From Candidatus Lernaella stagnicola (GTDB taxonomy: Bacteria; Lernaellota; Lernaellaia; Lernaellales; Lernaellaceae), in NCBI GenBank assembly GCA_030765525.1, contig JAVCCK010000010.1:450441-514440 (forward strand): a stretch of 64,000 nt of DNA, in the 5' to 3' direction. Position 1 is the stretch's first letter. Each line of letters begins with the position of its first letter. Of the stretch, positions 6,045 through 58,958 are shown piece by piece. The notes beneath the pieces were generated by a model. The model did not search any database and was not told where the DNA came from. It was given only the letters and a program-made list of their open reading frames with translations. The translations under genes were made by a program, and so were the position numbers.

Positions 6045-6145
6045 CCGCGCCTAAGAAAAACAGTGGACATCTATATGAACACCGGGGATTTTTCGGCACG
6101 AAAAAAGGGATCAGACCGAATCGCCTAACCCCTTGAAATCATTTG

Positions 6146-6230
6146 TGCCGGAGGTCGGAATCGAACCGACACGAGCGCAAGGCTCGCGGGATTTTGAGTC
6201 CCGTGCGTCTACCAATTTCACCACTCCGGC
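6146..6230 (-). tRNA. tRNA-Leu (anticodon CAA)
   Basis: Reverse complement GCCGGAGTGGTGAAATTGGTAGACGCACGGGACTCAAAATCCCGCGAGCCTTGCGCTCGTGTCGGTTCGATTCCGACCTCCGGCA folds as a class II tRNA with long variable arm. Anticodon loop CTCAAAA. CCA not encoded. Confidence 0.85.
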
Positions 6231-6283: not shown

Positions 6284-6356
<73 letters not shown>

Positions 6357-31273: not shown

Positions 31274-31281
31274 GGTGAACC

Positions 31282-32517: not shown

Positions 32518-32527
32518 GGTGAACGAA

Positions 32528-33220
32528 ATGGCTATTGTGGTTTGCGAAAACGTGAAGAAAACCTACGAAGTGGGCAAAGTGCTGGTGCCGGCGTTGCGCG
32601 GCGTAAACCTGACGATCAACGAGGGCGAGTTTACGGCGATAGCCGGCCCTTCCGGATCGGGCAAGTCGACGTTGCTGAACATGATCGGCGCGCTGGACGT
32701 GCCTACCGCGGGCAAGGTGACGGTGGCCGGGATGGATTTGCGCACGAAATCGGCGACCGAACTCAGTTGCCTGCGGCGCGACCGAATCGGCTTCGTTTTT
32801 CAGGCCTACAACTTGATACCGGTACTGACCGCGGTGGAAAACGTCGAGTTCATTTTGATGATTCGTGGCGTGTCCGCCGGCGAACGGCGTGCCCGTTCTT
32901 TGGCGATACTCAAGCGGGTCGGTCTGGCCGACATGGCCCACCGGCGGCCGAACGAACTCTCGGGTGGGCAGCAGCAGCGCGTGGCCGTGGCGCGGGCGAT
33001 CGTCAGCCGGCCGCAGTTGATCCTGGCCGACGAGCCCACCGCGAACCTGGACAGCAAGACCTCGGCGGGATTGATCGACCTGATGCTCGAACTCAACGAA
33101 AGCGAAAAGATGACTTTTGTCTTTTCAAGCCACGACCAACTCGTTATGAAGCGCAGCCACCGGTTGCTGATTCTCAAAGACGGCCAAATCGTGGAGGACA
33201 ACCAACAAAATGCCGCGTAG
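32528..33220 (+). CDS. ABC transporter ATP-binding protein (MacB/LolD-like)
   Basis: Walker A GPSGSGKST. Q-loop. Signature LSGGQQQRVAVARA. Walker B LILADEPT. Start at ATG 32528 after GAGGTGAA. Confidence 0.8.
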   Translation: MAIVVCENVKKTYEVGKVLVPALRGVNLTINEGEFTAIAGPSGSGKSTLLNMIGALDVPTAGKVTVAGMDLRTKSATELSCLRRDRIGFVFQAYNLIPVLTAVENVEFILMIRGVSAGERRARSLAILKRVGLADMAHRRPNELSGGQQQRVAVARAIVSRPQLILADEPTANLDSKTSAGLIDLMLELNESEKMTFVFSSHDQLVMKRSHRLLILKDGQIVEDNQQNAA

Positions 33221-34523: not shown

Positions 34524-34543
34524 TTTCGGCGAGGGTGAAAAAA

Positions 34544-35704
34544 GTGCGCCTGACTTATCTGCGGTTGTTGGTCCTCGTGGTCGCCGTGTTGTTCGTGGCG
34601 ACCTGCGGCTCCGGCGGTGAGGACAATTCAACCTTGCGCGGTGATACCGACGGCGACGACGACGATGATGTCGGCGACGATGACGTCGGCAGCGACGACG
34701 ACGACGATGACGACGACAACACACCGCCGCCCGGCGATTGCGTCGTGCCGACCGACGGCATGTGGATACTAGAAGACACCGTGTTGTGCCCGAGCGACGA
34801 ACCTTACGAACTGGAAGGCTCGGAATCGGGCGCGTTGTTTATCGCCTCATCCGACGTGACGCTAACCGCTTACGGTGTCACGTTGCAGGGCGTCGGCACC
34901 GGAGTCGGCGTTAGCCTCTACACGGACGGTTTGAGCGACGTGGAAATTGCCGGGCTCACGCTGGTGAACTACGACAGAGGCGTGGCGGGGTACGGCTCGT
35001 TCACCAACATCACGCTGCGCGAGCTTACGATTGCCGATTCGGGCGACGCGCACGTCTTTATCGGCCCACCGGGCAAGGCTGCGGGCGTCTGCCGGAACAT
35101 CCGCTTTTTGGACTTGGCGGTTCGCGACAGCTACAACACCGGAGTCGTGTGCGCGGAATGCACAGAATCGCTTATGCGCGGCATCACCTCGACCAACGAG
35201 CGCGAAGGCGTTATCGAGTCCAACCTCGTACTACTCGGCGGTTCGAGTAACACCATCGAAGACAACACGATTACTACCCGCAATTCCGCGGGCTGCAACG
35301 CCATCTGGTTGTCCGGAGTTTCCGAGACCCTGGTACAGAACAACCACGTCGACGTCGGCTACAAAGACGGTAGCCACCAGCACGGCAGTTCGTGGAATGT
35401 GTTCGCCGGCAACGAGTTCCGCGTGGGATTTTCCGCTGCTTACAACGTGCGGGTGCTGGATTTGGATACCGGCGCCGACAAAGCGGACCGCTGCCACGTC
35501 TATCCCAAAGGCTACGTACCTCCGACCACCAAGGAAATCATCCCCTCCACCGACAACACGTATTACGGAAACTCCTTTGCGACGGGGCTCTTCAAAGACG
35601 AATCGGATCGGGGCACGTTCTGCGTGGATGGCAGCGGTAACGACTATATCGACGGCGCGAGCTATCAGGGCCCGGACGAAAACGGTGGCACCTGCCCAGA
35701 CTAA
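34544..35704 (+). CDS. lipoprotein with poly-Asp linker and right-handed parallel beta-helix (pectate-lyase-like) domain
   Basis: Lipobox VATCGSG. Linker DTDGDDDDDVGDDDVGSDDDDDDDDNTPPPGD. Repeated N/G/V-rich rungs (NITLRELTIADSG, NTIEDNTITTRNSAGCNAIWLSG). Confidence 0.5.
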   Translation: MRLTYLRLLVLVVAVLFVATCGSGGEDNSTLRGDTDGDDDDDVGDDDVGSDDDDDDDDNTPPPGDCVVPTDGMWILEDTVLCPSDEPYELEGSESGALFIASSDVTLTAYGVTLQGVGTGVGVSLYTDGLSDVEIAGLTLVNYDRGVAGYGSFTNITLRELTIADSGDAHVFIGPPGKAAGVCRNIRFLDLAVRDSYNTGVVCAECTESLMRGITSTNEREGVIESNLVLLGGSSNTIEDNTITTRNSAGCNAIWLSGVSETLVQNNHVDVGYKDGSHQHGSSWNVFAGNEFRVGFSAAYNVRVLDLDTGADKADRCHVYPKGYVPPTTKEIIPSTDNTYYGNSFATGLFKDESDRGTFCVDGSGNDYIDGASYQGPDENGGTCPD

Positions 35705-36458: not shown

Positions 36459-37727
36459 TCACGGCGTCAGACAGCACCGAAACCCGTCGTCGGCGTGGGC
36501 GTCGTCAGGCGGATGGTGGTGCAGCGAGGCCACCGATTCACCGTAGCCGATAAAGCGCCAACCGAAAAAAGGCAGCAGGGCCTGCCCATTGATGGGATTC
36601 ACGTTGAACGAGCCGCCGCGCAGCGCGCGGTCGGGCCAGCCGTCTTGCCAAAGCTCGTCGGTCCATTCGCTGACGTTGCCGGTCATGTCGTAGGCGCCGT
36701 ACGGGCTTTTGCACTTTGGGAAGCGGCCGGTCGGCGCCAGGGGGCGCGCGCCGATTTCCCGCGTGAAGGTGTTGCACACGCCGGAGTCGAACTCCCAGCC
36801 GTTGGGATACAACAGGCCGGCCGGGCCGCCGGCGGCCTTTTGCCATTCTGCGCCGGTGCACAGACGCTTACCGACCCGCTCGCAGGCCGCTTTCGCCTGG
36901 GACCAGCGGACCAATGTCCAGGGCACGACGCCCGCGCGGCTCGTGGCGGCCTTGTCGTGACCGCCATCCGGACTGGTCGCCGTGGCTTCGGGTCGCGAAC
37001 CCTCGTAGCGGTCAATGCAAAAGTCGCCGACTTCCACGACGCGGTCTTGTTCGCCGGAGAAAATATAGCGCTGCCCGCTGACGCGAAACACCGCCGGGCC
37101 CGCCGGCACGCGCACCATATCGCGGGGGCAACGAAAACGAGCGCGCGGCAAACGCTTGGGGGCGTCCGCCCAGCGAAAGCGGTTCTGGTCACCGATGGAA
37201 AAAGTGGGGTAACCAGGATGGTTTTCAGGTGGTCGCCCGGCCGCGTTATGCGCGGCCGTATGCGCGTTGATTAGTCGTCGGGAATCCCACAACGTGGCGT
37301 CCAACCGCCAATGATCGCCGCTACGCTGCCACTGGGTCGGGAACTCAAGGGCGTATGCGTAGCCGCCCAGCACGATCGACATGCGGACGGTAGCCAGGGC
37401 GCCCTCGCCATCGGCATCGACGGCGACCAGGTCGATCGAGCGCACCATGTCGCGGTAGGTTGTCGTCATGCCTTCGATCAGCCGGCGGTGAGGGTCGGGT
37501 TTGGACCCGCGCGCGGCAAACGCACTCTCCAAGCCTCGCAACCACCATTGGCGCTTGGCGTTTTCGGTCAGGTAGCCGCCGGCGGCGGTGAAGTCGTCGG
37601 CGACGATGGCGTCGCGCAAGTGCCGCAAGTCGCGGGCGATCTCACGCCGCGGCGAAGAGAAGAGGCCGCCGAGTAAAAGCAGCGCGCCCAGTACGAGGCC
37701 GCCGGTGAGGATTAGGCGATTTCGCAT
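36459..37727 (-). CDS. membrane-anchored periplasmic FGE-sulfatase (SUMF1/EgtB/PvdO) domain protein
   Basis: N-terminal TM. C-terminal FGE-domain hallmarks GAEWQKAAGG...YDMTGNVSEWTDE...RALRGGSF. Confidence 0.65.
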   Translation of the reverse strand: MRNRLILTGGLVLGALLLLGGLFSSPRREIARDLRHLRDAIVADDFTAAGGYLTENAKRQWWLRGLESAFAARGSKPDPHRRLIEGMTTTYRDMVRSIDLVAVDADGEGALATVRMSIVLGGYAYALEFPTQWQRSGDHWRLDATLWDSRRLINAHTAAHNAAGRPPENHPGYPTFSIGDQNRFRWADAPKRLPRARFRCPRDMVRVPAGPAVFRVSGQRYIFSGEQDRVVEVGDFCIDRYEGSRPEATATSPDGGHDKAATSRAGVVPWTLVRWSQAKAACERVGKRLCTGAEWQKAAGGPAGLLYPNGWEFDSGVCNTFTREIGARPLAPTGRFPKCKSPYGAYDMTGNVSEWTDELWQDGWPDRALRGGSFNVNPINGQALLPFFGWRFIGYGESVASLHHHPPDDAHADDGFRCCLTP

Positions 37728-37728
37728 G

Positions 37729-39081
37729 TCACTGGCCTCGCAAGTTCCATTCGCCTTGGCAATAGATGCGGCGGTCGCGCTCGATGTTCGCCGTGGCGCC
37801 CGAATCGTGGTGGCCGATATCGACGGCGATGTCGCCCTTGCCGCAGTTGCGGGCCACGGCCTCGTCCCAAATCAAGCCGTCGCAAGCGGTGATGAAGCCG
37901 ATCAACACATTGCGGCGCGGGATACGCGAGAGGTCGAAACCAAACCACAGGCGAAGTTGCAGCGCCACCGCATCCCACATGAAGCGTAACGCGGCCGGGC
38001 GTAAGAAATGCGGTACGAGACGCAGGCCGAATTTGAGAGCGGGCCACCAGCGCCGCCGTCCGCCGCGGGTGTCGCGACGGAAGTCTTCTAATTTGCGGTC
38101 GAGGCCGTCCTTTTTGATGATCTCGAAAATCGTGCGGTAGCCGCCTCGGCCGTCGCGCACCAGTAAGTAATGTTGATTGTAAAAGCACTTGCGCAAACGG
38201 GTGATGTAGAGCAACGCGAAATAGAGCTTTTGAAAAACGCGAATGTCGTCGCGGTTGATGCGGCCGCCGGTTTGCTCCTCGAGCAGGTCGATCAACTCGT
38301 CGGGCGCCAGCACTTGGTCCTGATCGCCGTCGCGCTGGCGACCGAGCATGCGGCAGCCGAGGAAAAAGATTTCGCGCACAAAGGAATGCCGCACGCCGTA
38401 ATCGAACACTTCACCAAGGGCATGGTCATTGACGCCGCGACAAATCGTGCACTTGAGGTCGGTGGCCACGTCGAGCTTTTCCAGGTTGGCCAACCCCTTG
38501 CGCTTATTCTCCACCAGCGGCTGACCGCGAATGGCCGTGTAGATTTCGTCGGTGAAGCCGTCGAGACCGTAGTGGACTTCCGACAAGCCGGCCTCTTTGA
38601 GTACGCGCAAATATTCGTAGTCGGCGAGTTTGACGCCGTTGGTGTGCAACGAAGCGTAGTTGCCGCTTTCGGCAACGATGCGGATCATTTCCGGCAGGTC
38701 GTCGCGCACGGTGGGCTCGCAGCCCATCAGGTCGATCTTGTGTCGGCGGCGCGTGCGGACGAAATCGCGCAGTTGCTGCATCGGCAAATCGGGCAGGGCG
38801 CGATCATTGGCGCTGGCCAGGCAGATGGGACATTCGAGGTTGCAGCGGTCGGTGGTGCGCAGGATGAAATCGCGCTGCGGGAAGGATTCGTGCATCAGGT
38901 CGAAGTAGAAGCGGTGAAGGTCGGCCATGTAATCGGCGTGGCGCGAAAGCAAGGCTGAAACGAAGCCGTGATCGGGGCACGTTCGCTCGATGCGGAATTC
39001 GCCGTCGCGCACAACAATCTCGCCCGGCATCGGTTTGAGGCACGTGGGGCAGGTCGTGGTTGTATGTCGTAACACTTTCAT
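37729..39081 (-). CDS. radical SAM protein with N-terminal 4-Cys zinc-ribbon
   Basis: CPTC...CPDHG ribbon. Radical SAM cluster motif DRCNLECPIC (CxxxCxxC). TIM-barrel-like GCEPT / LHTNG elements. Stop 1 nt from FGE-protein start. Confidence 0.6.
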   Translation of the reverse strand: MKVLRHTTTTCPTCLKPMPGEIVVRDGEFRIERTCPDHGFVSALLSRHADYMADLHRFYFDLMHESFPQRDFILRTTDRCNLECPICLASANDRALPDLPMQQLRDFVRTRRRHKIDLMGCEPTVRDDLPEMIRIVAESGNYASLHTNGVKLADYEYLRVLKEAGLSEVHYGLDGFTDEIYTAIRGQPLVENKRKGLANLEKLDVATDLKCTICRGVNDHALGEVFDYGVRHSFVREIFFLGCRMLGRQRDGDQDQVLAPDELIDLLEEQTGGRINRDDIRVFQKLYFALLYITRLRKCFYNQHYLLVRDGRGGYRTIFEIIKKDGLDRKLEDFRRDTRGGRRRWWPALKFGLRLVPHFLRPAALRFMWDAVALQLRLWFGFDLSRIPRRNVLIGFITACDGLIWDEAVARNCGKGDIAVDIGHHDSGATANIERDRRIYCQGEWNLRGQ

Positions 39082-41818: not shown

Positions 41819-43552
41819 ATGGCACACCGCATTCTGGGAATCGACATTGGGCACACGGAAATCAAAGCCGTGCTGGCCGAAGTAACGTGGCGCGCCACGA
41901 CCGTCTTGGGCGCGTACGTGGAGCGCGTTCCGTCTGCTGAAGAAGTTCAACATCGCCTGTTACCCACCGAACTTGAACCCGAGACCGAGCCCGCCACGGA
42001 CGACGAAAGTGAAGGCGAAAATTCCGTACGCGACGGAGAAACCGACGCGCCGAGTGAACCGCCGCCACCGTGGGTGTACGCCGTCGGCGACATGCTCAAG
42101 AAACATCGGCTGGAGTTCAACGAAGTCCACGTAACCATGCCGGGCACCGCGGTGACGACGCGGATCATGACGCTGCCCTTTTCCAACCGGCGGCGCCTAG
42201 AGCAGGTTCTGCCCTTCGAATTGGAAAACCACGTCCCCTTCGACTTGGACGAAATGCACGTATCCTTCGAGGTTCTGGATAAGGACCCGCAGGGCGGTTT
42301 CCGCGTGCTGGTTGTGCTGACGCCCAACACGGAGTTGGCGCGGTATGTCGGCCACATCGCCGCGGCGGGGATTGATCCGAAAGTCATCGACGTGAGCCCC
42401 TACACCCTCTTCACCGCCGCCAAGTTGGCGTTGCCGGACGAAATGGGGGCGATCGCGCTCGTGGATTTGGGCGCCACGCACACCGACGTGGCCATTCTCA
42501 ACGAAGGCGAACTTGTGGATTTGCGGTCGATTCCCATCGGCTCGCAACGATTCGATCACGAGTTGGCGCGGGCGATGAAGAAAGACCTGAGCGAAGCGGA
42601 AAAAACGAAAATCGAAAAAGCCGACCTCACTGCCGGCGGCAGCGGGAACGATGTCTTGCGCCGGGCGACGGGGTCCTTAATCAGCCGGTTGCGACAGACC
42701 CTACAGGGCGTGCGCACCGAAACCGGCGTTGAAGTCACCCGTATATATCTAACCGGTCGCGGATCGCTACTCTTGGGTTTGCCTCACTTTCTCGGCGAGC
42801 AACTCACGGTGGAAGTCGACCGGCTCAACGCGTTGGCGAGCGATTTGCCGGTTTCGATCGACGCGAAAGACCCGGCCGACCAGGGGCGTTACGCGGCCCC
42901 CTTGGCGCTGGTCAGTCGCGGCCTCGGCGAGTTGCGCGACATCAAGCTCAACCTGCGGCATGGCCCATTCGTGTATCAACGACAGCAACTCGCGCTGCAG
43001 TCGTCGATTCGCAGCATCGCGATCGTTGCCGGTATCGTGCTGGTGTTGTTGCTCTACAACGTTGTCGCAGGCCACTTACAGAAAAAGCGGCAACACGAAG
43101 CGTTGCAGCAGCAAGTCGTTGCGCTGTACCTCAAAGCGTTCCCGGGCAGCGTGCCGCCGGTGCGACCGCTCGAGCAGTTCAAGGGACAGATCAGCAAGAC
43201 CGTGGCCAAGCACAAAACCGTCGGATTCCTGGGCGAAGATAATTTGCGCGCCATCGACATCCTCAAAGCCATGAGCGAGCACATTCCGCCCGGCGTGACG
43301 GTCGATATCAAGAAATTCGACTTGACGCCCGAGGCGATCAAGATTGAGGGAGAGGTGCCGTCCTTTCCCGATGTGGACCGCATCGAGGAATCGCTGAAGA
43401 AGTTCAGCGGATTCAAAAGCGTGAAGAAAGAAACCAGCAGCACGGTGTCGGAAAAAGTGAAATTCAAGTTCCACATCGGGCTCGTACAGAAAAAGGGCGG
43501 GAAAAGCAAAACGAAAAAGCCCGCCATGACCACGCCGGTGGTGACGCCATGA
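41819..43552 (+). CDS. GspL-like / PilM-PilN fusion-type protein (cytoplasmic actin-like domain, TM, periplasmic domain)
   Basis: N-terminal ILGIDIGHTEIKAVL (PilM/GspL-like). Acidic insertion. TM IRSIAIVAGIVLVLLLYNVVAG. Periplasmic coiled-coil/ferredoxin-like tail with Lys-rich end. Confidence 0.5.
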   Translation: MAHRILGIDIGHTEIKAVLAEVTWRATTVLGAYVERVPSAEEVQHRLLPTELEPETEPATDDESEGENSVRDGETDAPSEPPPPWVYAVGDMLKKHRLEFNEVHVTMPGTAVTTRIMTLPFSNRRRLEQVLPFELENHVPFDLDEMHVSFEVLDKDPQGGFRVLVVLTPNTELARYVGHIAAAGIDPKVIDVSPYTLFTAAKLALPDEMGAIALVDLGATHTDVAILNEGELVDLRSIPIGSQRFDHELARAMKKDLSEAEKTKIEKADLTAGGSGNDVLRRATGSLISRLRQTLQGVRTETGVEVTRIYLTGRGSLLLGLPHFLGEQLTVEVDRLNALASDLPVSIDAKDPADQGRYAAPLALVSRGLGELRDIKLNLRHGPFVYQRQQLALQSSIRSIAIVAGIVLVLLLYNVVAGHLQKKRQHEALQQQVVALYLKAFPGSVPPVRPLEQFKGQISKTVAKHKTVGFLGEDNLRAIDILKAMSEHIPPGVTVDIKKFDLTPEAIKIEGEVPSFPDVDRIEESLKKFSGFKSVKKETSSTVSEKVKFKFHIGLVQKKGGKSKTKKPAMTTPVVTP

Positions 43553-44085
43553 GTTTCAACCTGAACCTGGATGATCGGCAACGTAAGATCGCGCTTTTCG
43601 GCGGCGCGGGCGTGGCGGTGTTGTTGTTCGTGTGGATCGTTGTACTGCCCAAGTTCGGCGTCGGCGGCCTGGATTCAACAATCGACACGAAGGAAAGCGA
43701 GCTGCGCGAGATGGTGCGGCTCTATCAGAATTTCGAGCAGATCAAAAGCGACGTGACGCTCATCGAAAAGAAGATCGCCCGCAATGAGAGTATGTCGCTG
43801 CTTTCGGAATTGTCGGCCATCGCCGACAAAGTGGGCATCACCCAGGGCATCGACTCGATGGTCTCGAAGCAGAGACCGAAAAACGATTTCTACAAAGAAG
43901 AAGCGGTCGAGATACGGTTGCAGAAAATCAACTTGGAAGAGTTGGGCCGTCTCTTGTACGAGATCGAACATTCCACCCAATTGCTACGGGTTCGAAAACT
44001 GCACGTCGAAAGCCGCTTTGACGACAACAGCTTGCTTAACGTGACTGTCGAGGTCTCGACCTTCAAGGAGCGCGAGGAAGAGTAA
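43549..44085 (+). CDS. GspM / PilO-like bitopic periplasmic protein
   Basis: Start overlaps upstream stop (ATGA). N-terminal TM IALFGGAGVAVLLFVWIVVL. Periplasmic coiled-coil plus alpha/beta domain. Confidence 0.45.
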   Translation: MSFNLNLDDRQRKIALFGGAGVAVLLFVWIVVLPKFGVGGLDSTIDTKESELREMVRLYQNFEQIKSDVTLIEKKIARNESMSLLSELSAIADKVGITQGIDSMVSKQRPKNDFYKEEAVEIRLQKINLEELGRLLYEIEHSTQLLRVRKLHVESRFDDNSLLNVTVEVSTFKEREEE

Positions 44086-47707: not shown

Positions 47708-47935
47708 GATTTTTCCTTACGCCGGGATGAATCTTTCCGTTCGCGGAGATTAATCGGCGTATCCAGGCCTGTCAACATCTCATCGCCGCTGGCGTGAATC
47801 GCACACTACATAATAACCGCATTTCACGTCACGCGATACTTGTGCAATATCTTCGTTGTGATATGCTTAAGTGGTTCCGAGTTGGTATGGGGTTTCGTAC
47901 AGCAACGGCTTCAGTGGATGGGTGGGCGCGCAAAT

Positions 47936-48430
47936 ATGCGGAATTATTTGGTTATTCTTGTGCTCTGTGCGGCGTTCGGGCTGGTTCCGGCCGTCGCCTG
48001 GGCCGGGAAGTGCACGCGCGTGTTGCCGCAGGAAGTATTCGACTTTTTCGGCGACCAGCGTGAACCTTCCGTGTGCGGCGACTACGAATACAAGTTGCTC
48101 GATCTCAACGACGACGGCAAATTCGAACTTCACGTCACGAATTACCGCCGGTCCTGCGAAGATATTGGCTTCTGCAATGTCGAGTTTTTCAAACAAGACG
48201 GCGAAAAGTGGTTGCACATCGCCACCATCCCCGGCCGCATCCGCTTGCTCAAAACGACCACCGGAGGATACCACGACATCGCCACGTGGTTGTTGGGACA
48301 GCGCTACGTTTATATTTGGGACGGCAAAACCTATAAGGACAGTATGCAAGGCAACGACTCGCCGCCCGACAAGGAAAATGACGCAGAGACCCCCGACCCC
48401 GGCAAGAAGACAGTCACACCAACGCCATAA
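47936..48430 (+). CDS. hypothetical secreted protein
   Basis: Signal peptide MRNYLVILVLCAAFGLVPAVAWA. Four Cys. Lys/Asp-rich tail. Locally lower GC. Confidence 0.45.
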   Translation: MRNYLVILVLCAAFGLVPAVAWAGKCTRVLPQEVFDFFGDQREPSVCGDYEYKLLDLNDDGKFELHVTNYRRSCEDIGFCNVEFFKQDGEKWLHIATIPGRIRLLKTTTGGYHDIATWLLGQRYVYIWDGKTYKDSMQGNDSPPDKENDAETPDPGKKTVTPTP

Positions 48431-48800
48431 TTCGACACAAATCGTCCAATGACGGGTTATTTGTAAGTAATTATAGACGTTTACGAGGAAACACAGGCCT
48501 CGTTGAAAACCCCTTTTCGCGGGGAATGAGGGTTTACAATTCCGCGGGAAGTGTGTTATTTCCAGTTTTGTTCTTCGAGTGGTGACTCGAAAATGAAGTT
48601 TTTTTCCGGCTCTATGTCCCGGAAAATGTATTGAGGGAATGGCTAAATCCATAGCGCCGGAGAAGGGAGGAATGCTATCAAACAAGGGAATGAAAAACCC
48701 CGCCATGTAGGAACTGCTCGTTGATACTAAATGGCGGCGTGAATCCGATGACAATGTTATTGGCTAGGTTAACGAAACGATAGACAAGGAGATTGACACA

Positions 48801-50648
48801 ATGAGAAAGAGCGCTTTTTTTGCCGTGTTCACCATCGCGTTGTTAGTGGCCGGCGCAAGCCTGGCGACTGCCGCGACCGGCGGACCGGACGCCTACGGGT
48901 ATACGTGGGACGATACCGAAACCTACGTGTGGAATGACATTTCGGGTACCGGCACGTTGCTGGCCCTGGGTGACGACGACTATGAATATCTGGCCCCAGG
49001 CTTTGATTTTCTGTTCTATGGCAATGTCTATGACGAAGTCAGCATCACTTCGAACGGGCACATCGTGCCGGGCCTCGAAGGCTACTACGTCGGCGTAGAC
49101 TGCTCGATTTGGGCTGATTACGTCTCCCCGGTGTTCGGCGCCTGGGCTGACTTGAATCCGTCCTCGACCGGCGCGGTTTACTACGAAACGATCGGCTCTT
49201 CCCCCAACCGGAAATTCGTCGTGCAGTACGATGGCGTACCGCGCTACGGCGACGATACTGACACTACGACCTTCCAAATCGTGATGGAAGAAGCCACCAA
49301 AGACGTCGTGATCTATATGAACGATACGCTGGCCGGCACCAGCACAACCAGCGTGGCCATCGGCATTCACGGCGGCACCACTGACTTCAACCTGTTGAAC
49401 GAATGCGCCGTCGGCGCCGGTACGGCGAGCACCGCGTACCGCTTCGCGCATCCGGATGAGTACTTCCTGTTCACCGGTCCGACCGAAGCCGCCGGTAACC
49501 CCGACGACGTCGTGACCTACACCATGTCCATTGAAAACCAGACTGGCTCCAAGGGTACGTTCAACGTCGCGTTGACCGGCAACACCTGGACCACAACCGC
49601 TCCGGCGACGGTCGATATCGCTGACGGCGCCACCGGCACCTTCGACGTGGAAGTGACCGTTGCAACCACCGCTTTCTGTGGTGCTTCGGACGCCGTGACC
49701 GTCACCGTGGACAAAGGCACCATTTCGCAAGAGAAAGAGCTGACGACTTCGGTCGACTGCTTGGTCTTTGAGCTGGATGTCGAAACCGCCTCCGGCAACA
49801 ACTTGTGCCTCGGCGTTGAATATGTCGGGAACCACTTGTTCGTCACGGCCGCCGGTACGAGCGCGAATCCGCCGCATACGGTTTACGAGCTGGCTCTTGA
49901 CGGCACCCTGATCAACAGCTTCACGCAAGACGGCGTGAGTGACACTTGGGGTTGGCGCGACTTGGCTTGGGACGGCGACTATCTGTATGGTTCGGCCAAC
50001 GCCACCGTCCAGTGCTTCGAAACCGACGGTACGCTCTGTGGTTCCTTCACCGGACCGCAAACCCCGAACCGCGCGCTGGCGTACGACCCGGATACCGATC
50101 ACTTCTGGACGGCGAACTTCACGTCCGACATCTATGAATTTGATCGGACCGGCGCCATCATCAACCAGTACACCAATGCTTACTCCGCGTACGGCATGGC
50201 CTGGGATGCCGAGTCGGCGGGCGGCCCGTTCCTGTGGGTCTTTGAGCAAGACAACAACTACATTCGTCAGTTCGATCCGACGGTCGGTGACTACACCGGC
50301 GTGTTGATTCCGGTGACCGGCGATGCGGCCGGCGGCCTCGCCCTGGCCGAAAGCTTCGGCAAGGTCGGCGGCGCTCCGGTGCTGCTCGCTCTGATGCAGA
50401 TGACCCCGGATATGGTCTTCGGCTACGGCATCGGCGACGACCCAATCGGCGACGATGACGACGACGACGATGACAACGACGACAACGACACGACCGACGA
50501 TGACACCACGGGTGACGACGACACCACCGGTGACGACGACACTACGGGCGACGACGACGACGACGCGACCGACGACGATGCAACCGACGACGACACAGCC
50601 GTTGGCGGCGACGACGACGACGATGACGATAGTGGGTGTGGCTGCTAA
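48801..50648 (+). CDS. large secreted protein A: conserved N-module, beta-propeller-like core, poly-Asp tail ending DDDDDDDSGCGC
   Basis: Signal peptide. ATGGPDAYGYTWDDTETYVWNDISGTGT N-module. Repeated YD/FW blades (DTDHFWTANFTSDIYEFDRTGAI). Tail DDDDDDDNDDNDTTDDDTTGDDDTTGDDD...DSGCGC*. Confidence 0.65.
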   Translation: MRKSAFFAVFTIALLVAGASLATAATGGPDAYGYTWDDTETYVWNDISGTGTLLALGDDDYEYLAPGFDFLFYGNVYDEVSITSNGHIVPGLEGYYVGVDCSIWADYVSPVFGAWADLNPSSTGAVYYETIGSSPNRKFVVQYDGVPRYGDDTDTTTFQIVMEEATKDVVIYMNDTLAGTSTTSVAIGIHGGTTDFNLLNECAVGAGTASTAYRFAHPDEYFLFTGPTEAAGNPDDVVTYTMSIENQTGSKGTFNVALTGNTWTTTAPATVDIADGATGTFDVEVTVATTAFCGASDAVTVTVDKGTISQEKELTTSVDCLVFELDVETASGNNLCLGVEYVGNHLFVTAAGTSANPPHTVYELALDGTLINSFTQDGVSDTWGWRDLAWDGDYLYGSANATVQCFETDGTLCGSFTGPQTPNRALAYDPDTDHFWTANFTSDIYEFDRTGAIINQYTNAYSAYGMAWDAESAGGPFLWVFEQDNNYIRQFDPTVGDYTGVLIPVTGDAAGGLALAESFGKVGGAPVLLALMQMTPDMVFGYGIGDDPIGDDDDDDDDNDDNDTTDDDTTGDDDTTGDDDTTGDDDDDATDDDATDDDTAVGGDDDDDDDSGCGC

Positions 50649-50676
50649 GTAGTCCGCCTAGTTATTTGTCCATCAA

Positions 50677-50701
50677 AGAGGGCCTTCGGGCCCTCTTTTT
50701 T
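50677..50701 (+). terminator. intrinsic terminator (8-bp stem agagggcc/ggccctct, loop ttcg, T5)
   Basis: agagggccttcgggccctcttttt lies 28 nt after the stop of protein A. Confidence 0.6.
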
Positions 50702-50857
50702 CATCTCAATTCTCCTATGCGACACGGGGCAAGAGTCGATATTCGCGGGACCCATCACCCCCTTTTTTTTGAACCCCAGGCAAGGTATATTTCCAGTCAC
50801 AACGCGGCATTACACAACAGGCAAGCAGTCGGAAAACCAACCAAACGGGGGGAAACG

Positions 50858-53473
50858 ATGAGAGCGAAAGTCTTTCTGGTTTTCATGATATGTGTGTTTT
50901 TTACCGCCGGTGCGGTGACGGCACACGCGGCAACCGGCGGACCGGATGCCTACGGATATACGTGGGACGATACCGAAACCTACGTGTGGAATGACATCTC
51001 CGGAACGGGGACACCATTGACCCTGGGCGACGATGATTACGAATATCTCGCACTCGGCTTCGATATCCTTTTCTATGGTGTCAATTATACGGACGTCAGC
51101 GTAACTTCAAACGGCCATATCGTGCCGGGATTCGAAGGTTATTACGTCGGCGTCACCTGCTCCAGTTGGGCGACATACACGTCGCCGGAATGGGGCGCTT
51201 GGGCCGATCTGAACCCGTCGGCGGGCGGTTCGATCTACTACGAAACCGTGGGAACTTCGCCTAACCGCAAGTTCATCGTGCAGTACGACGAAGTGCCACG
51301 CTACGGCGACGCGGCGGACACCACGACCTTCCAACTCGTGTACGAAGAAGCGACCAAAGACGTCGTGATCTACATGAACGACACCTTGCTGGATACCAGC
51401 AGCACCAACATGGCCATCGGTATCCATGGAGGCACCGCAACCAACAACCTGCTGTATGAATGCGGCCCCGGGGCCGGCACGGCGGGCGGCGCGGTTCGCT
51501 TCGCACACCCGACTTCCTACTTCTTCGTCACGGGGGCGACATCCGGTGCGGGCCAACCTGGTGCCGTCGAGACTTACACCCTGACGGTCGATAACCATAC
51601 CGGTTCCAAAGGAACCTTCAACATCAGCCTAAGCGGCAATGCGTGGGCGACCTCCGCCCCGGCGACCGTCGATGTCGCTGATGGCGCCACCGGCACCTTC
51701 GATGTGGACGTAACGATCGATCCGACCGCTTTCTGCGGCGGTTCGGACGGCGTCACCGTCACCGTCGAAAAGGGCGGCGACTCCAAAACCCACGACATTA
51801 CAACCACCGTCGATTGCCTCATCTTTGAACTCGATGTCACGGCCGCGACCGGCGACATTCGCGTTCTCGGCGTAGAATACGTTCCTCCCTACTTGTACCT
51901 CACCGGTACCGGGGACAGCGCCACCGCGCCGCACACCGTATGGGAACTGGATCTGGCCGGGGCGGTGATCAACTCGTGGACGCAACCGGGCTCCGCCTCC
52001 TGGGGTTGGCGGGACATGGCCTACGACGGTGCTCACTTGTACGCGTCGGAAGGCTCTAACGTTGATTGTTTCGACACCGATGGCACGTCCTGCGGCTCCT
52101 TTACGGGTCCGCAAAGCCCGAACCGCGCGCTGGCGTACGACCCCGCGACGGATCACTTCTGGACGGCGAATTTCTCGTCCGACATTTACGAGTTCGACCG
52201 CGCCGGTGCGATCATCAACCAGTACACCAACGCCTACAGCGCCTACGGTATGGCTTGGGATGCCGAATCCGAAGGCGGACCCTTCCTGTGGGTCTACGAG
52301 CAAACCAACAATGCGATTCAGCAATTTAACCCCACAACCGGTGCTTACACCGGCGTGTTCATCCCGGTACCGGGCGACGGCACGGCTCTCGCCGGCGGCT
52401 TAGGCTTGGCGAGCACGTGGCCGGCTGAAGTCGGCGGCCCGCCGGTACTGTTGGCGATGGCGCAGCAAACATTCGACACCGTCTATGGCTACGGTATCGG
52501 TGACGCCGGCGACGACGATGACGACGACGATGACGACAACGACGATAACGATGACAACGACGATAACGATGACAACGACGACAATGATGACAACGACGAC
52601 AATGATGACAACGACGACAATGATGACAACGACGATAATGATGACAACGACGACAATGATGACAACGACGATAATGATGACAACGACGACAACGACACCG
52701 CCCCGGGCGATGTGGTCAAAGTCGGCTTCCAGTACGCGGGCAACGATGGTGCGTTCCACTTGTTCGATGATGTGACCATCACCGACAGCAACAAGGCGAC
52801 CGTCATCGATGAAAGCTTCGAAGGCGGGGCTGTGCCGGGCGACTGGTCACAAATCATCAACGTAGCCGGTTACACCTGGCAGGTCACCGACGGCGTCGGT
52901 GGCTCGGGCTTGGTGCCCCATACCGGAACGTACGAGGCTGAAATCGAGTGGCAGTCCACGACACCGCAGGATGAATGGCTCGTGACGCCCGCTCTGGGCG
53001 CAGCCGCCGACGGTCCCTTCGAAGTCAGTTTCTGGAATGCGGGCAGTGTGTACTGGTCGGGCAACGCGACGCTGCACGTCAGCTATACCTGCGACGACGG
53101 CGCCACTTGGACCGAGCTGTACGTCTTCCCCGGCACGGGCGAAACCGAGGACTTCACCTGGTACGAGAACACCATCCCCTTCGATTGCAGTGGCGGTGAC
53201 GACGACGACGACGACAACAACGACGATAATGACGACAATGACACGACCGATGACGACACGACCGATGACGACACAACCGATGACGACACGGGCGGCGACG
53301 ACGATACGACCGACGACGACACGACCGACGACGATACGACCGACGACGACACCGGCGCGGACGACGACGACGACGCCAGCGACGACGATGCCGGCGATGA
53401 CGACACCGGTGATGACGACACGATCGCAATCGGTGACGACGACGACGATGACGACAGCGGGTGCGGCTGTTAG
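50858..53473 (+). CDS. large secreted protein B (paralog of A) with 24x DDN repeat, extra beta-sandwich domain and the same DDDDDDDSGCGC terminus
   Basis: Same signal peptide/N-module (ATGGPDAYGYTWDDTETYVWNDISGTGT, ~90% nt identity to A over this stretch). DNDDNDDNDDN repeat block. Additional domain (VVKVGFQYAGNDGAFHLFDDVTITD...YTCDDGATWTELYVF). Second acidic tail and SGCGC*. Confidence 0.65.
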   Translation: MRAKVFLVFMICVFFTAGAVTAHAATGGPDAYGYTWDDTETYVWNDISGTGTPLTLGDDDYEYLALGFDILFYGVNYTDVSVTSNGHIVPGFEGYYVGVTCSSWATYTSPEWGAWADLNPSAGGSIYYETVGTSPNRKFIVQYDEVPRYGDAADTTTFQLVYEEATKDVVIYMNDTLLDTSSTNMAIGIHGGTATNNLLYECGPGAGTAGGAVRFAHPTSYFFVTGATSGAGQPGAVETYTLTVDNHTGSKGTFNISLSGNAWATSAPATVDVADGATGTFDVDVTIDPTAFCGGSDGVTVTVEKGGDSKTHDITTTVDCLIFELDVTAATGDIRVLGVEYVPPYLYLTGTGDSATAPHTVWELDLAGAVINSWTQPGSASWGWRDMAYDGAHLYASEGSNVDCFDTDGTSCGSFTGPQSPNRALAYDPATDHFWTANFSSDIYEFDRAGAIINQYTNAYSAYGMAWDAESEGGPFLWVYEQTNNAIQQFNPTTGAYTGVFIPVPGDGTALAGGLGLASTWPAEVGGPPVLLAMAQQTFDTVYGYGIGDAGDDDDDDDDDNDDNDDNDDNDDNDDNDDNDDNDDNDDNDDNDDNDDNDDNDDNDDNDDNDDNDTAPGDVVKVGFQYAGNDGAFHLFDDVTITDSNKATVIDESFEGGAVPGDWSQIINVAGYTWQVTDGVGGSGLVPHTGTYEAEIEWQSTTPQDEWLVTPALGAAADGPFEVSFWNAGSVYWSGNATLHVSYTCDDGATWTELYVFPGTGETEDFTWYENTIPFDCSGGDDDDDDNNDDNDDNDTTDDDTTDDDTTDDDTGGDDDTTDDDTTDDDTTDDDTGADDDDDASDDDAGDDDTGDDDTIAIGDDDDDDDSGCGC
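52510..52696 (+). repeat. in-frame tandem DNA repeat (~18-bp unit gacaacgacgacaatgat) encoding (DDN)n
   Basis: About 10 near-identical 18-bp units with synonymous gac/gat and aac/aat alternation, inside protein B. Confidence 0.7.
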
Positions 53474-53497
53474 CGACGCTCTGGCAAACAACAAACA

Positions 53498-53525
53498 GGC
53501 CGGGTCAAATTGACCCGGCCTTTTT
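53498..53525 (+). terminator. intrinsic terminator (10-bp stem ggccgggtca/tgacccggcc, loop aat, T5)
   Basis: ggccgggtcaaattgacccggccttttt lies 25 nt after the stop of protein B. Confidence 0.6.
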
Positions 53526-53571: not shown

Positions 53572-55353
53572 GTGTTGCGAGACATAGGGCGACGCGCGGC
53601 AATCATCCTGGCCATTCTGGCGGCCCTGACCGTCACGGGGGGGTGTACGCCGAACAAGCCGCCGGAGTTGCGCAACGTGGTATTCGTCTCCCTCGACACT
53701 GTCCGCGCCGACCACTTGAGCTGTTATGGCTACCAACGCGCGACCAGCCCGCACATCGATGCGCTCGCCGCCGAGGGCATGTTGTTCGAAAACGCCATGG
53801 CGCAATCGTCATGGACGACGCCGTCGCATGCCTCGTTGTTTACGGGCTTGCTCAGTTCGGCCCATGGCGCGGCGCAACTCAATCAGCCGATCAAAAAGGA
53901 AGTACCGGTGCTCGCGGAGTACCTGCAGGACGCCGGCTTTCAAACCGGGGGCTTCGTAACCCACCTGTTCGTTGGCGACTACCTCGGCTTTGATCGCGGC
54001 TTCGATTCATTTTGGTACGAACAAACACCGCGCGCCAAAGGCCCGGTGGACGCCGCGCTCACCTGGCTTGAGGGGCGTAACGAGAAACCGTTCTTCTTGT
54101 TCCTGCACCTGTTTGATCCCCATCACCCCTATGCGCCGCCCGACAAATACGTGCGCCAATACGAGGGTGATTGCCGCCGCGAACCGGGCAATATGGCCTC
54201 CTTGGGCAAGTTGTTTGACCGCGATGCGACGGGCCGGGACCAGTTGCTGGCCTGCCTCATCCGTCGTTACGATGACGAAATCCACTACGCCGACGAACAA
54301 CTCGGGCGGCTGTTCGCGTACCTGAAAGAGAAAGCGTTGTGGGACCAAACGCTGGTCGTGTTCCTCTCCGACCACGGCGAGGAATTCCTCGACCACGGCA
54401 GCGTGCTGCACGCCATCACCCTGTATCAGGAACAACTACACGTCCCGCTGATCCTGGCCGGCGGGCCCCCGGGGCTGCTGCAAGCGGGGTCCCGTGTCAA
54501 AGGGCGCGTCGCGCTCTACGACATCATGCCCACGTTGTTGGACTTGTTCGACATTAAGCCCAAGGCGACGATGACCGCCCAAACGCTCCTGCCGCACCTG
54601 CGCGGAAAAACCCAGCCCGACCGCGACGTCATCGCCGAGACCAACGATGTCGGGCCCGACCGCATGACTCTGTTGTCCGGTCCGGCGAAATACCTTTATG
54701 CGCCCGATGCCCACGTGTTCCAGCAACATATGTCGGCGGAGTTTTATGACCTCGCCGGCGACCCGGGTGAAAAACATAACTTGCTGGATGAGCGGCCCCA
54801 AGAGGCCGCGCGCGTGCGGGCGCGGATGATCGAGCAGGGGCGCTACGCGACTCGCCAGGCGTGGCGGATCATGTGGGGCGGCGCCGGCAGCGAGAGAGCC
54901 GTGCGCGGCAGGTTGCAAACCGAGGGACGTTTCACCCACGCCTTCAAGTATCTCGGCTTCACACGGTTCGACGAAATCCCCGAAGACCTGCCGATCGATC
55001 AAGCATTGCGCCAAGCCGATTATCAAATCCACCGCGCGAGCCGGGTCATCAGTTTCAGCGCGGCCGACCACATTGTGGCCAACGGGTTTGCCGCCGTGCT
55101 TGCCCAAGCCGACGCCCCGCTGACCCTGACCGTCGACTGGCGAACTGAAACCGGCGACGGCAAACGCGAAACGCTCACGATAGCCGGCACGCCGACCCGT
55201 GATAAGCCTCTATTGGCCGCCGGCGGGCTCGTGCGCATCTTCACCGAAGATATCCTCACTTTTCCCGAAGCGCCGCCCGAACTCGAGATCAGCCGAAAAG
55301 AAAAATTGCCTGCGCCGCTGAAACAGAAATTGCGCACGCTGGGCTATTTCTAG
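53572..55353 (+). CDS. sulfatase-like (alkaline-phosphatase superfamily) lipoprotein with Thr/His in place of the FGly Cys/Arg
   Basis: Lipobox LTVTGGC. VFVSLDTVRADHL metal site. Signature region SSWTTPSHASLFTG (canonical C/S-x-P-x-R replaced by T-T-P-S-H). GTG start after GGAGG. Confidence 0.6.
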   Translation: MLRDIGRRAAIILAILAALTVTGGCTPNKPPELRNVVFVSLDTVRADHLSCYGYQRATSPHIDALAAEGMLFENAMAQSSWTTPSHASLFTGLLSSAHGAAQLNQPIKKEVPVLAEYLQDAGFQTGGFVTHLFVGDYLGFDRGFDSFWYEQTPRAKGPVDAALTWLEGRNEKPFFLFLHLFDPHHPYAPPDKYVRQYEGDCRREPGNMASLGKLFDRDATGRDQLLACLIRRYDDEIHYADEQLGRLFAYLKEKALWDQTLVVFLSDHGEEFLDHGSVLHAITLYQEQLHVPLILAGGPPGLLQAGSRVKGRVALYDIMPTLLDLFDIKPKATMTAQTLLPHLRGKTQPDRDVIAETNDVGPDRMTLLSGPAKYLYAPDAHVFQQHMSAEFYDLAGDPGEKHNLLDERPQEAARVRARMIEQGRYATRQAWRIMWGGAGSERAVRGRLQTEGRFTHAFKYLGFTRFDEIPEDLPIDQALRQADYQIHRASRVISFSAADHIVANGFAAVLAQADAPLTLTVDWRTETGDGKRETLTIAGTPTRDKPLLAAGGLVRIFTEDILTFPEAPPELEISRKEKLPAPLKQKLRTLGYF

Positions 55354-57188: not shown

Positions 57189-58958
57189 TTGCGCCGTATC
57201 TTCGCCACTTTGGTCATGTTGAGCCTCGTGTTTTGCTTCGCCTGCGACGCGAAACGATACCGGCCCACCAAACTGCCCCCGGCGCGAAACGCCGTGCTGA
57301 TCAGCATCGACATGCTGCGCGCCGACCACCTGGGCACGTACGGGTATTCCAAACCGACCTCACCCAACCTCGACAAGCTGGCGAAAGAGGCCATTCGTTT
57401 CGACCGGGCCTATAGCAGTTCAAACTGGACCCTGCCCGGGCACGCGGGCATGCTCACCGGCCGCATGTCATCCTGGCACGGCGGCATTCAGCTACACGAC
57501 GCCATTCGCGAATCGGTGCCCCTGGTTTCCCAGGTCCTGCAAGCGCGCGGCGTGAGAACGGCGGCGCTGACAAGCCATATTTACGTATCCCCGCGCTATG
57601 GATTCGAGCGTGGCTTCGACTACTTCGAGTTCGAGCAAAATCGCGCCGCGCCGGTCATCACCGACAAGGCTGTGGCATGGCTGGAAACGCAGGGCGACGA
57701 ACCCTTCTTCCTGTTCTTGCATTACTTCGACGTACATAACCCCTTCGGCCAAGGGGGCGCGCCCGTAGGACGTTTTACCAGCGATCCGGAATGCCGCGGC
57801 CCCGTCACCGTGCACGAGGCCGTCGCCGCCGCCTACCAGGAAAACTGGGACGCCTTCGATTGCATCACCGCCTTGTACGATGCCGATATTGCGCTGGTCG
57901 ACCGCGAATTGGGCCGGTTGTTCGAATACCTGAAGCACCGCGGATTGCTGGAGGAAACCCTGCTGATCGTCACGTCGGATCACGGCGAACTACTCGGCAA
58001 GGGAGAGGGCGTTACCCACGGCCTGACGCTGCGCGAACCGGAAATCCGCGTGCCGCTCTTGATTCGTTTCCCCGGCGCCGCGGCGGGCAACACGGCCGTG
58101 CCGCACTTGGTCAGCAACATCCAACTGACGCCGACTATTCTCGAATCGATGGGCGCGCCCGCCTTCGACACCGACCTGCCGAGTCTCTTTCCGCTTTTGG
58201 CCGGCGGTGCGCCTCCCACGTGGCTGGGCGTCGAAACCGACAGCATTCGGTATCAACAAATCGGCATCGTGGGCGAGCGTTACAAGCTGATTCTGCCGCC
58301 CACCTACCACATCATGGACACCCGCCTGGCGCCGATGCTGATCGATATCAAAGGTTCGGAAGAAGAAAACCTGTGGGAGAAGCACCCCGAGCGCGTGCGC
58401 GACATGCTGGGCCGGGCCGAACAAAGCGGCTGGTACGGCCGCGGCACCTGCCACGAGTTCGTGCATCGTTTCGGGCCGGACGTGGGGCCGGTGAAGCTGC
58501 GTTTTTCGTTTCCCGAGGATCGTCCGCCGGTGTATGTGCGGCCGTGGCGGCGTGCGGTGCAGGTCAAGCCGGGCGGCTTCTTCGACGTTTGGCCGCATTT
58601 GCGACGGTCTCCCGGCACGATCGAGTTGCGCCTGAAACCCGGCGAGCACCCCATGGGCATCGTGTTCGTCATGCCCGAAGGCGTGCAGGCGCGGGCGGAA
58701 GTGTTCTTCTCGGGCGCTCAACGTCCGGCCGTATTGTGGGGCGAGGAGAAAACGGAGTGGGACGGCGCCTCGAAAGGGCTACCCACCGAGGCGGGTGCGT
58801 GGCAGGCCGTCACCCGGCCCGATGGGGCTTTCATACAGGCGCGCAGCTACCGCGTGCTGGATCTCGAACGACCCAACGGCGGGCGTTCGGGCGTGCCGGT
58901 CGATTTGACCAACGACGAGGAACGCGACCTGCGCACCCTCGGCTATCTGGGGATGTGA
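57189..58958 (+). CDS. sulfatase-like lipoprotein, second copy (Thr/His variant)
   Basis: TTG start after AAGGAG. Lipobox LVFCFAC. ISIDMLRADHL. Signature SSNWTLPGHAGMLTG (T...P.H). Confidence 0.55.
   Translation: MRRIFATLVMLSLVFCFACDAKRYRPTKLPPARNAVLISIDMLRADHLGTYGYSKPTSPNLDKLAKEAIRFDRAYSSSNWTLPGHAGMLTGRMSSWHGGIQLHDAIRESVPLVSQVLQARGVRTAALTSHIYVSPRYGFERGFDYFEFEQNRAAPVITDKAVAWLETQGDEPFFLFLHYFDVHNPFGQGGAPVGRFTSDPECRGPVTVHEAVAAAYQENWDAFDCITALYDADIALVDRELGRLFEYLKHRGLLEETLLIVTSDHGELLGKGEGVTHGLTLREPEIRVPLLIRFPGAAAGNTAVPHLVSNIQLTPTILESMGAPAFDTDLPSLFPLLAGGAPPTWLGVETDSIRYQQIGIVGERYKLILPPTYHIMDTRLAPMLIDIKGSEEENLWEKHPERVRDMLGRAEQSGWYGRGTCHEFVHRFGPDVGPVKLRFSFPEDRPPVYVRPWRRAVQVKPGGFFDVWPHLRRSPGTIELRLKPGEHPMGIVFVMPEGVQARAEVFFSGAQRPAVLWGEEKTEWDGASKGLPTEAGAWQAVTRPDGAFIQARSYRVLDLERPNGGRSGVPVDLTNDEERDLRTLGYLGM

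Follow-up and report, generated by a model that had tools for sequence, protein, structure and literature searches.

An apparent polyaspartate-GCGC C-terminal tag on exported proteins of the candidate phylum Lernaellota and its likely kinship with MYXO-CTERM signals

To our knowledge, the C-terminal sorting signals described so far (LPXTG, PEP-CTERM, GlyGly-CTERM, MYXO-CTERM, and others) are all tripartite, a basic cluster coming third after a motif and a membrane helix, and each has a dedicated protease. The closest of these to the element described here is MYXO-CTERM, which consists of a signature motif with an invariant Cys (a “generic GCGC motif”), an uncharged transmembrane (TM) helix and a cluster of Arg residues (PMC11980579; 10.1101/2023.06.07.544157). 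Its Cys is presumed to be lipidated by an enzyme that the myxosortase papers explicitly give as not known (PMC11980579). MrtX, a myxosortase from the CPBP/Rce1 family, cuts on the distal side of that Cys, and the T2SS (type II secretion system) then delivers the protein to the cell surface (PMC11980579; 10.1101/2023.06.07.544157); when the protein TraA lacks its MYXO-CTERM, the T2SS secretes it into the medium (PMC11980579). The signal (NCBIfam TIGR03901), with its myxosortases MrtX/MrtC/MrtP, has been reported from Myxococcota and Bradymonadales only, with no mention of a truncated form. Two tandem genes, here called A and B, in a 64,000-nucleotide stretch (“the window”) of Candidatus Lernaella stagnicola (GenBank assembly GCA_030765525.1, contig JAVCCK010000010.1, positions 450,441 to 514,440) encode exported proteins that end in a long Asp-rich tail followed by Gly-Cys-Gly-Cys and a stop codon. 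The host is a member of Lernaellota, a candidate phylum earlier called FEN-1099. Its published description, from the anoxic waters zone of Ace Lake (Antarctica), presents it as an organism that degrades polysaccharides and proteins and does not mention sorting signals. This phylum appears to use the signature motif alone, as the last residues of more than 100 exported enzymes and adhesins.

Gene A (48801–50648, + strand) encodes 615 amino acids and gene B (50858–53473, + strand) encodes 871; the gene B open reading frame (ORF) opens at 50636, and its real start is the ATG at 50858 (MRAKVF...), which is preceded by a Shine-Dalgarno-like site. Across the first 550 amino acids, ATGGPDAYGYTWDDTETYVWNDISGTGT included, identity between the two proteins is 69%, and both begin with a predicted Sec signal peptide that has an AxA-type signal peptidase I cleavage site and no lipobox ([LVI][ASTVI][GAS]C); cleavage should fall between MRKSAFFAVFTIALLVAGASLATA and the following A in the gene A protein (48801–48872) and between MRAKVFLVFMICVFFTAGAVTAHA and the following A in that of gene B (50858–50929). 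Their last residues are alike, DDDDDDDSGCGC-stop. In gene A a 66-amino acid acidic spacer of DDDTT/DDDAT pentads, the last part of which is D7-S (50436–50633), leads into the tag core G-C-G-C and a TAA codon (50634–50648). The C-terminal spacer of gene B is 87 amino acids of DDDTT pentads with the same D7-S ending (53198–53458), and its G-C-G-C core is closed by TAG (53459–53473). Aspartate accounts for 87 of the 615 residues of protein A and for 154 of the 871 of protein B. Imperfect, GAC-rich tandem repeats make up the tail DNA; one of them, in gene B, has an 18-bp unit, present 9.6 times, and encodes (DDN)n. Because the final 12 codons of the two genes differ by four synonymous changes and by the stop codon, the identity of the two termini is kept at the protein level. 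Only A and B among the window ORFs have a GCGC end or an Asp-rich tail. The first-pass annotation of this DNA had recognized A and B as tandem paralogs with a shared signal peptide and N-terminal module and identical SGCGC ends, all of which holds; it called them giant, which overstates proteins of this size, and it treated the terminus as a feature of two paralogs. The feature is real, and that framing is too narrow because the tag spans the phylum.

A scan for a degenerate DNA pattern encoding D4-x(1–3)-GCGC-stop in one genome from each of 185,579 species yielded at least 120 loci. Among the matches listed, about 105 of 116 are long ORFs with Asp-rich tails, all of them in 10 metagenome-assembled genomes (MAGs), two of which are labeled FR-FEN-1099-1 and HK-STAS-FEN-2, and the matches in other taxa are chance ORFs of merely 6–24 amino acids. 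The window genome is not among the loci listed (blastn gave no overlap). Removal of duplicates left at least 143 distinct tagged ORFs in 11 genomes, with at least 28 in the richest MAG; the terminus of A and B is therefore shared by many other proteins. Among the matches listed, the end is exactly GCGC in 121 of 143; in these 121 tails positions −4 to −1 are invariant G-C-G-C, position −5 is Asp, Ser, or Gly, and Asp occupies each of positions −6 to −11 in at least 83%. Across the tag, the same listed matches draw on every Gly codon (four), Cys codon (two), and stop codon (three), and their acidic tails have a median length of 60 amino acids, the longest being 235. The frequency of the GCGC terminus is far beyond chance.

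The Cys is retained even where the exact tetrapeptide is not. The 930 kb examined from related genomes hold 141 ORFs whose tails are Asp-rich, of which 119 end in GCGC and 137 have a Cys within their last six residues; 18 have other Cys endings (for example GCGR, GGCA, GCCGC, GCGGC, GGCS, and GCCGL) and just four lack a terminal Cys. Since these variant endings occur alongside GCGC, the conserved core is better written polyAsp-G-C-X(0–3)-COOH. Four homologs of the window proteins (P0001–P0004, 45–48% identical) have differing middle domains and retain an acidic (DDDTV)n tail, which ends in SGCGC, SGGCGC, or GGGGCSGC. One of them, P0003 (45% identical), is the positional ortholog: its locus is syntenic with the window (GDSL lipase, GH2, small ORF, tagged gene, second gene), and the terminal Cys is conserved there as in the other three. 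The carriers of the tag fall into at least 30 unrelated clusters, in which Pfam finds PKD and Kelch domains, BNR/sortilin propellers, subtilases (S8), C25, M14, and C1 peptidases, purple acid phosphatases, and TIG domains, and at least 64 of the 74 complete carriers have classical Sec signal peptides. Because the carriers are diverse, unrelated, and Sec-exported, the tag has the profile of a C-terminal sorting signal.

The resemblance of the tag to MYXO-CTERM extends from its position to its sequence. Both signals form the very end of surface or secreted proteins that are exported by Sec and diverse in function, by the dozens per genome; both have the identical G-C-G-C signature with invariant Cys after a disordered linker; and T2SS genes are present with both. 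The first-pass annotation had proposed that GCGC corresponds to the Cys-containing part of a MYXO-CTERM-type signal from which the TM and Arg segments are missing and that it may hence be a distinct C-terminal signal, and a hidden Markov model (HMM) comparison bears this out, since the D(n)-GCGC tails of some relatives run on into TM and Arg segments and reach the TIGR03901 cutoff, whereas the tails of A and B give no match to this model even at E ≤ 10. The extended tails were obtained by scanning metagenomes for D5-GCGC with a sense codon after it. With junk matches set aside, the scan returned one class of long proteins that end in polyAsp-GCGCQV or -GCGCQA, nearly all from a single metagenome (Ga0272444), and a second class in which D5-GCGC leads through a spacer of 8–15 amino acids into a TM helix with RRRR or RKK behind it. 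Each of the eight tripartite tails tested from the second class passes TIGR03901.2 (20.2–30.6 bits; cutoff 20). The Ga0272444 contigs belong to relatives of Lernaellota, with syntenic orthologs at 50–70% identity, and hold GCGC-stop, GCGCQ[VA]-stop, and tripartite forms; one contig carries both truncated and tripartite tails. In a 21-kb stretch of a 98.8-kb contig there are three C-G-D(n) lipoproteins, one D10-GCGC tail with TM and RK segments, two polyAsp-GCGC-stop proteins, and a GspD secretin. The Ga0272444 loci (L126–L173), together with L158, represent a sister lineage with two extra residues (QV or QA) after GCGC. A homology search with a protein bearing a tripartite tail (L135), made for truncated-tail orthologs, returned only L135 itself.

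The tag differs from MYXO-CTERM in stopping at the second Cys, with no TM helix and no Arg cluster, in having a long poly-Asp tract before the motif, and in its host phylum, which lies beyond the described range. Because the TM helix and the Arg cluster are missing, an intramembrane CPBP protease has nothing to cut; the tag ends where a MYXO-CTERM protein is proposed to end after cleavage by myxosortase. No GCGC+TM+Arg tail was found in about 930 kb from the 10 MAGs and the window. Restoration of the missing segments by read-through or frameshifting was considered and rejected, as none of 115 tagged genes has an in-frame TM+Arg segment past the stop codon and each of the other two frames gives one in 115, which is background. 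Since it lacks both segments, fails the HMM cutoff and occurs outside the described taxa, the tag is filed here as a tail-less variant of the Cys-type C-terminal sorting signals and not as a member of MYXO-CTERM. Judged by its sequence, the tag is terminal, under selection at the protein level, restricted to one lineage, common to many families, and continuous with genuine MYXO-CTERM tails. It is very probably a phylum-wide sorting or attachment tag that is derived from MYXO-CTERM or sister to it. No prior description of a polyAsp-GCGC tag was found in the searchable literature, and the tag is currently invisible to annotation with Pfam and NCBIfam.

The only tripartite tail in the 10-MAG samples and the window lies in the window itself, in a gene pair typical of Myxococcota (18436–20171, − strand) that comprises a CFI-box-CTERM protein (19113–20171) and an outer membrane β-barrel of the MXAN_2562 family (110 bits; cutoff 100). 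The former scores 84 bits against NF041770 (cutoff 40), reads ...GGCFIATAAWGDY...TM...RRRGVSR, and is partially similar to the MXAN_2561 “MYXO-CTERM-anchored” family. As a candidate for a canonical GCGC tripartite tail it was rejected, because it belongs to a different family and has no GCGC motif. Its presence means that Ca. L. stagnicola uses at least one classical tripartite, Cys-containing C-terminal signal.

The lipoproteins of these genomes carry a related arrangement at their other end. Half of the lipobox N-termini found in related genomes (18 of 36) directly precede a DDDxx acidic linker (e.g., ...AC-GGG-DDDDDD...), and three window lipoproteins have a lipobox Cys followed by a poly-Asp/poly-Glu linker (1130–1669, + strand; 25772–28483, − strand; 34370–35704, + strand). 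The linkers of these three read ACGGDDEDEE..., GCAGGGELAGDDDD..., and ATCGSGGEDN...DDDDDVGDDD..., and the domains they carry are CARDB, DUF6259, and right-handed β-helix. At the level of sequence, the lipoprotein C-G-G-D(n) is the mirror image of the tag D(n)-G-C-G-C. In Bacteroidota, acidic residues beside the lipid-bearing Cys drive the surface exposure of lipoproteins (PMC5080379). Among exported proteins, a lipobox is present in 6 of 73 tagged and 46 of 169 untagged ones (odds ratio 0.24, p = 6e-4), and five of the six tagged proteins with a lipobox resemble false positives. With regard to secretion, the window contains, at 41819–44085 (+ strand), a GspL gene (TIGR01709, 86 bits; cutoff 65), the N-terminal half of which is PilM-like, followed by a weak GspM-like gene; these genes of the T2SS inner membrane platform lie about 5 kb upstream of A and B.

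The best explanation of these observations as a whole, which we hold at about even strength, is a C-terminal sorting or attachment tag with a Cys that is modified for surface display. The tag would consist of a disordered poly-Asp spacer (median about 60 amino acids) that ends D(5–13)-[S/G]0–2-G-C-G-C-COOH. Its carriers, as their sequences show, leave the cytoplasm by Sec with cleavage of the signal peptide. One or both terminal Cys thiols would then be modified in the periplasm, most likely through S-lipidation by the enzyme postulated for MYXO-CTERM, and transfer to the surface, probably by the T2SS, would leave the protein hanging from the outer membrane on its acidic spacer. The poly-Asp tract may be an extended tether repelled by the membrane, and it could also be a determinant of surface export as in the Bacteroidota lipoproteins. 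Since the myxosortase cut point is where the gene already stops, the process would call for no intramembrane protease. That the modification is lipidation specifically is a tentative suggestion, made by analogy with MYXO-CTERM; the first-pass annotation had raised lipid or thioether attachment.

Several points weigh against this explanation. Lipidation is argued by analogy, and even for MYXO-CTERM it is a prediction. Where no TM segment is present, it is not obvious what would keep the C-terminus at the inner membrane, within reach of a membrane-bound transferase. No recurrent untagged neighbor emerged when 765 genes from the at least 120 loci and the window were clustered, and motif and HMM searches of about 1 Mb of sampled DNA found no gene for a CPBP protein or a myxosortase with the NF040914 core (an EEIVFR-containing ORF, L109:3-1019, was rejected as a candidate because it matches nothing in Pfam or NCBIfam). 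The mutual exclusivity of tag and lipobox fits released tagged proteins as well as it fits anchored ones; since TraA goes into the medium when its MYXO-CTERM is missing, a tail-less tag could mean release; and a Cys-Gly-Cys end beside a long run of Asp could serve in metal binding or disulfide formation.

These points lead to the alternatives. The leading one, unlikely as it is, has the tagged proteins retained without a covalent bond or a lipid, with poly-Asp binding Ca2+ or Mg2+ and bridging to lipopolysaccharide, exopolymer, or mineral while Cys-Gly-Cys makes a soft-metal or thiol contact; binding of cations or minerals by the tails goes back to the first-pass annotation. The extreme acidity and length of the tails of A, B, and the other carriers would suit such retention, as would the failure of the neighborhood and motif searches to turn up a lipidating enzyme; it leaves unexplained the invariance of GCGC as the very last residues in the 121 genes listed in spite of synonymous drift, and the continuation of the motif into genuine MYXO-CTERM signals in relatives. 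Like acidic linkers, moreover, follow the lipid-bearing Cys of N-terminal lipoproteins, where they are spacers beside a covalent anchor. The mirror-image linkers favor a tether over release as well. Loss of the TM and Arg segments would, on a release reading, have turned an anchor into a signal for free secretion, for instance by the T2SS, with GCGC as a recognition or quality-control element and poly-Asp as a solubility tail. The precedent of TraA (PMC11980579), the degradative nature of much of the cargo (peptidases and phosphatases), the depletion of the tag among lipoproteins, and the presence of T2SS genes all agree with this. Free secreted enzymes, however, normally need no 60-amino acid tether with two invariant Cys residues, and adhesin-like cargo (NIDO, cleaved-adhesin, and PKD) is expected at the cell surface; release ranks just behind cation-mediated retention, and is likewise unlikely.

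A CXC pair is a known redox-active arrangement, and the terminal Cys residues could instead form disulfides with an outer membrane or S-layer partner or join tagged proteins into a matrix. Conserved paired Cys residues in the globular domains suggest an oxidizing folding compartment, which would suit this idea, but exposed disulfides are expected to be unstable in the anoxic, sulfidic, or fermentative habitats concerned (the Ace Lake anoxic zone, fens, and digesters), single-Cys variants of the tag exist (GCGR, GGCA, and GGCS), and no conserved partner gene occurs in the sampled neighborhoods. A disulfide tether is thus quite improbable. Lack of any function, with the tails as decayed or truncated MYXO-CTERM remnants or as GAC-repeat expansions fixed by drift, would be compatible with the slippage-prone GAC-rich tandem repeats of the tail DNA. 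It is essentially excluded by the conservation data: GCGC-stop closes 121 of the 143 listed tails in 11 genomes with all synonymous and stop codons in use, it persists in a syntenic ortholog of 45% identity, and a terminal Cys is missing from only 4 of 141 Asp-rich tails.

A sorting or attachment tag with a modified Cys, the explanation preferred here, has partial counterparts in several other systems. In eukaryotes, CaaX proteins are prenylated and then cleaved by Rce1, and Rab-type -XCXC proteins are doubly geranylgeranylated with no proteolysis. MYXO-CTERM needs an Rce1-family protease as CaaX does, and the -GCGC tag resembles Rab -CXC, for which none is needed; tag variants with one to three residues after the Cys (GCGCQV, GCGCMIA, and GGCA) add to the likeness, the one protein that ends GCGCMIA resembling a CaaX box. 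Eukaryotic prenylation is cytosolic, whereas tagged proteins are Sec-exported, and no prenyltransferase homolog came to light, with no search aimed at one; the comparison is an analogy only. The lipoprotein export signals of Bacteroidota (C-x-K-(D/E)2 and SDDDD) are similar to the tag in that a Cys anchor adjoins an acidic run; they differ in having the opposite polarity, since the tag is C-terminal rather than N-terminal and has no lipobox or signal peptidase II context, and in an acidic run of two to four residues as opposed to tens. The type IX secretion system (T9SS) domain (Por_Secre_tail, PF18962) and PEP-CTERM occupy the equivalent position as anchors on NIDO-like and propeller homologs in other phyla (“choice-of-anchor” proteins). 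The former is a folded β-sandwich of about 80 amino acids and the latter a tripartite TM signal, and neither has sequence similarity to the tag; the A and B C-termini match nothing in Pfam, PF18962 included, at E ≤ 1, nor anything in NCBIfam.

It is a rather doubtful but far-reaching conjecture that polyAsp-GCGC-COOH is a protease-independent extracytoplasmic lipid anchor, a bacterial counterpart of Rab-CXC whose S-lipid transferase would be shared with MYXO-CTERM, JDVT-CTERM, Synerg-CTERM, and CGP-CTERM. If this were true, Lernaellota would be a natural case of Cys modification uncoupled from myxosortase cleavage, and comparison of tag-bearing with tag-free genomes could reveal the Cys-modifying enzyme. 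Any modification of the Cys would make the tag a minimal, protease-free C-terminal anchor and would open a comparative-genomic and biochemical route to the enzyme that acts on the MYXO-CTERM Cys. In practice, the tag also offers a simple predictor of the surface and secreted proteome of Lernaellota, polymer degraders of anoxic lakes, fens, and digesters.

Apart from their tails, A and B have almost no matches in Pfam or NCBIfam when searched at full length; gene A has a weak match to the Ig-like FixG_C. The first full-length homology search scored 8,000 candidates, and poly-Asp words may have swamped part of its results. The N-terminal module of gene A (48870–49478) is about 200 amino acids long and has 7,161 representative homologs (clusters at 50% identity), with up to 14 copies per protein, often in proteins of 2,000–5,000 amino acids. 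Pfam NIDO (PF06119) is matched by 10 of 17 trimmed homologs of the module (best E = 1.2e-8), while the window copies themselves give no match to PF06119 at E ≤ 1; a profile of the family finds RemA (PDB 8gl6_D), in its N-terminal region, at E = 8e-18. RemA, a mobile adhesin for gliding in Flavobacterium, is cargo of the T9SS. The AlphaFold2 (AF2) model of the module is confident and all-β (predicted local distance difference test [pLDDT] score 89), and Foldseek found no significant fold match to it in the PDB. Of the unannotated adhesin repeats of bacteria encountered in this analysis, this NIDO-like module (P0168–P0315) is one of the most widespread. It is followed in gene A (49479–50435) by a predicted Ig-like domain (amino acids ~227–318) and a β-propeller (amino acids ~320–545). 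The AF2 model of this core (amino acids 220–545) has pLDDT above 90, and its best compact fold match is the five-bladed propeller of plant glutaminyl cyclase 2iwa (TM-score 0.67), in agreement with the propeller-like core first suggested from the sequence. The same NIDO-like, Ig-like, and β-propeller domains, at 69% identity to those of gene A, occupy 50930–52501 in gene B. Gene B alone continues with an internal acidic (DDN)n linker (52502–52693), in which the repeats of the 18-bp unit span 52521–52692, and an inserted Cleaved_Adhesin-type domain (PF07675; 52694–53197; 25.0 bits, E = 2.1e-5, gathering cutoff 21.4) that lies between the two acidic tracts. On the strength of their NIDO-like, Ig-like, propeller, and Cleaved_Adhesin domains, A and B are adhesin-like surface proteins that are exported.

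Each of the two genes has its own leader and terminator-like hairpin, as the first-pass annotation had noted. The leaders are richer in AT than the genes, which have about 60% GC: that of gene A (48431–48800) has 44% GC and an AAGGAGA Shine-Dalgarno-like sequence just 5′ of the ATG, and that of gene B (50702–50857) has 52% GC. No Rfam family matches either leader, and a riboswitch or small RNA was rejected because the only Rfam matches are spurious ones below threshold on GAC repeats. The hairpin after gene A (50675–50698) has a 10-bp stem followed by a T run, as in an intrinsic terminator, and the one after gene B (53497–53521) has an 11-bp stem and is bidirectional. Directly 5′ of gene A lies a small exported ORF of 164–196 amino acids with no family match (47840–48430, + strand), whose position is conserved in the syntenic P0003 locus (L123 7991–8557).

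Other loci in the window include a probably horizontally acquired defense gene, a 1,399-amino acid ORF (1845–6044, + strand) in a segment of low GC content (49–50%; window mean 59%) that adjoins tRNA-Leu (6145–6230) and tRNA-Ala (6284–6356) genes. Its product aligns end to end with NF058534, “NACHT domain-containing antiphage protein HyoA” (792 bits where the equivalog cutoff is 1200; E = 1e-237), and has no PADLOC or Pfam match. At 30038–33220 and 33210–34523 (both + strand), genes for a pair of LolC/E-like permeases and a LolD-like ATPase, none of which reaches its equivalog cutoff, lie directly 5′ of those for a 437-amino acid putative outer membrane protein and one of the poly-Asp lipoproteins. 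The 36459–39081 segment (− strand) encodes a protein with an FGE-sulfatase domain and a radical-SAM protein whose nearest NCBIfam models are TrsS and Tes-type radical-SAM proteins, well below cutoff, and sulfatase genes at 53572–55353 and ~57200–58958 (+ strand) flank genes for PMT_2-type glycosyltransferases. Together these may constitute a neighborhood for sulfatase maturation and the utilization of sulfated glycans.

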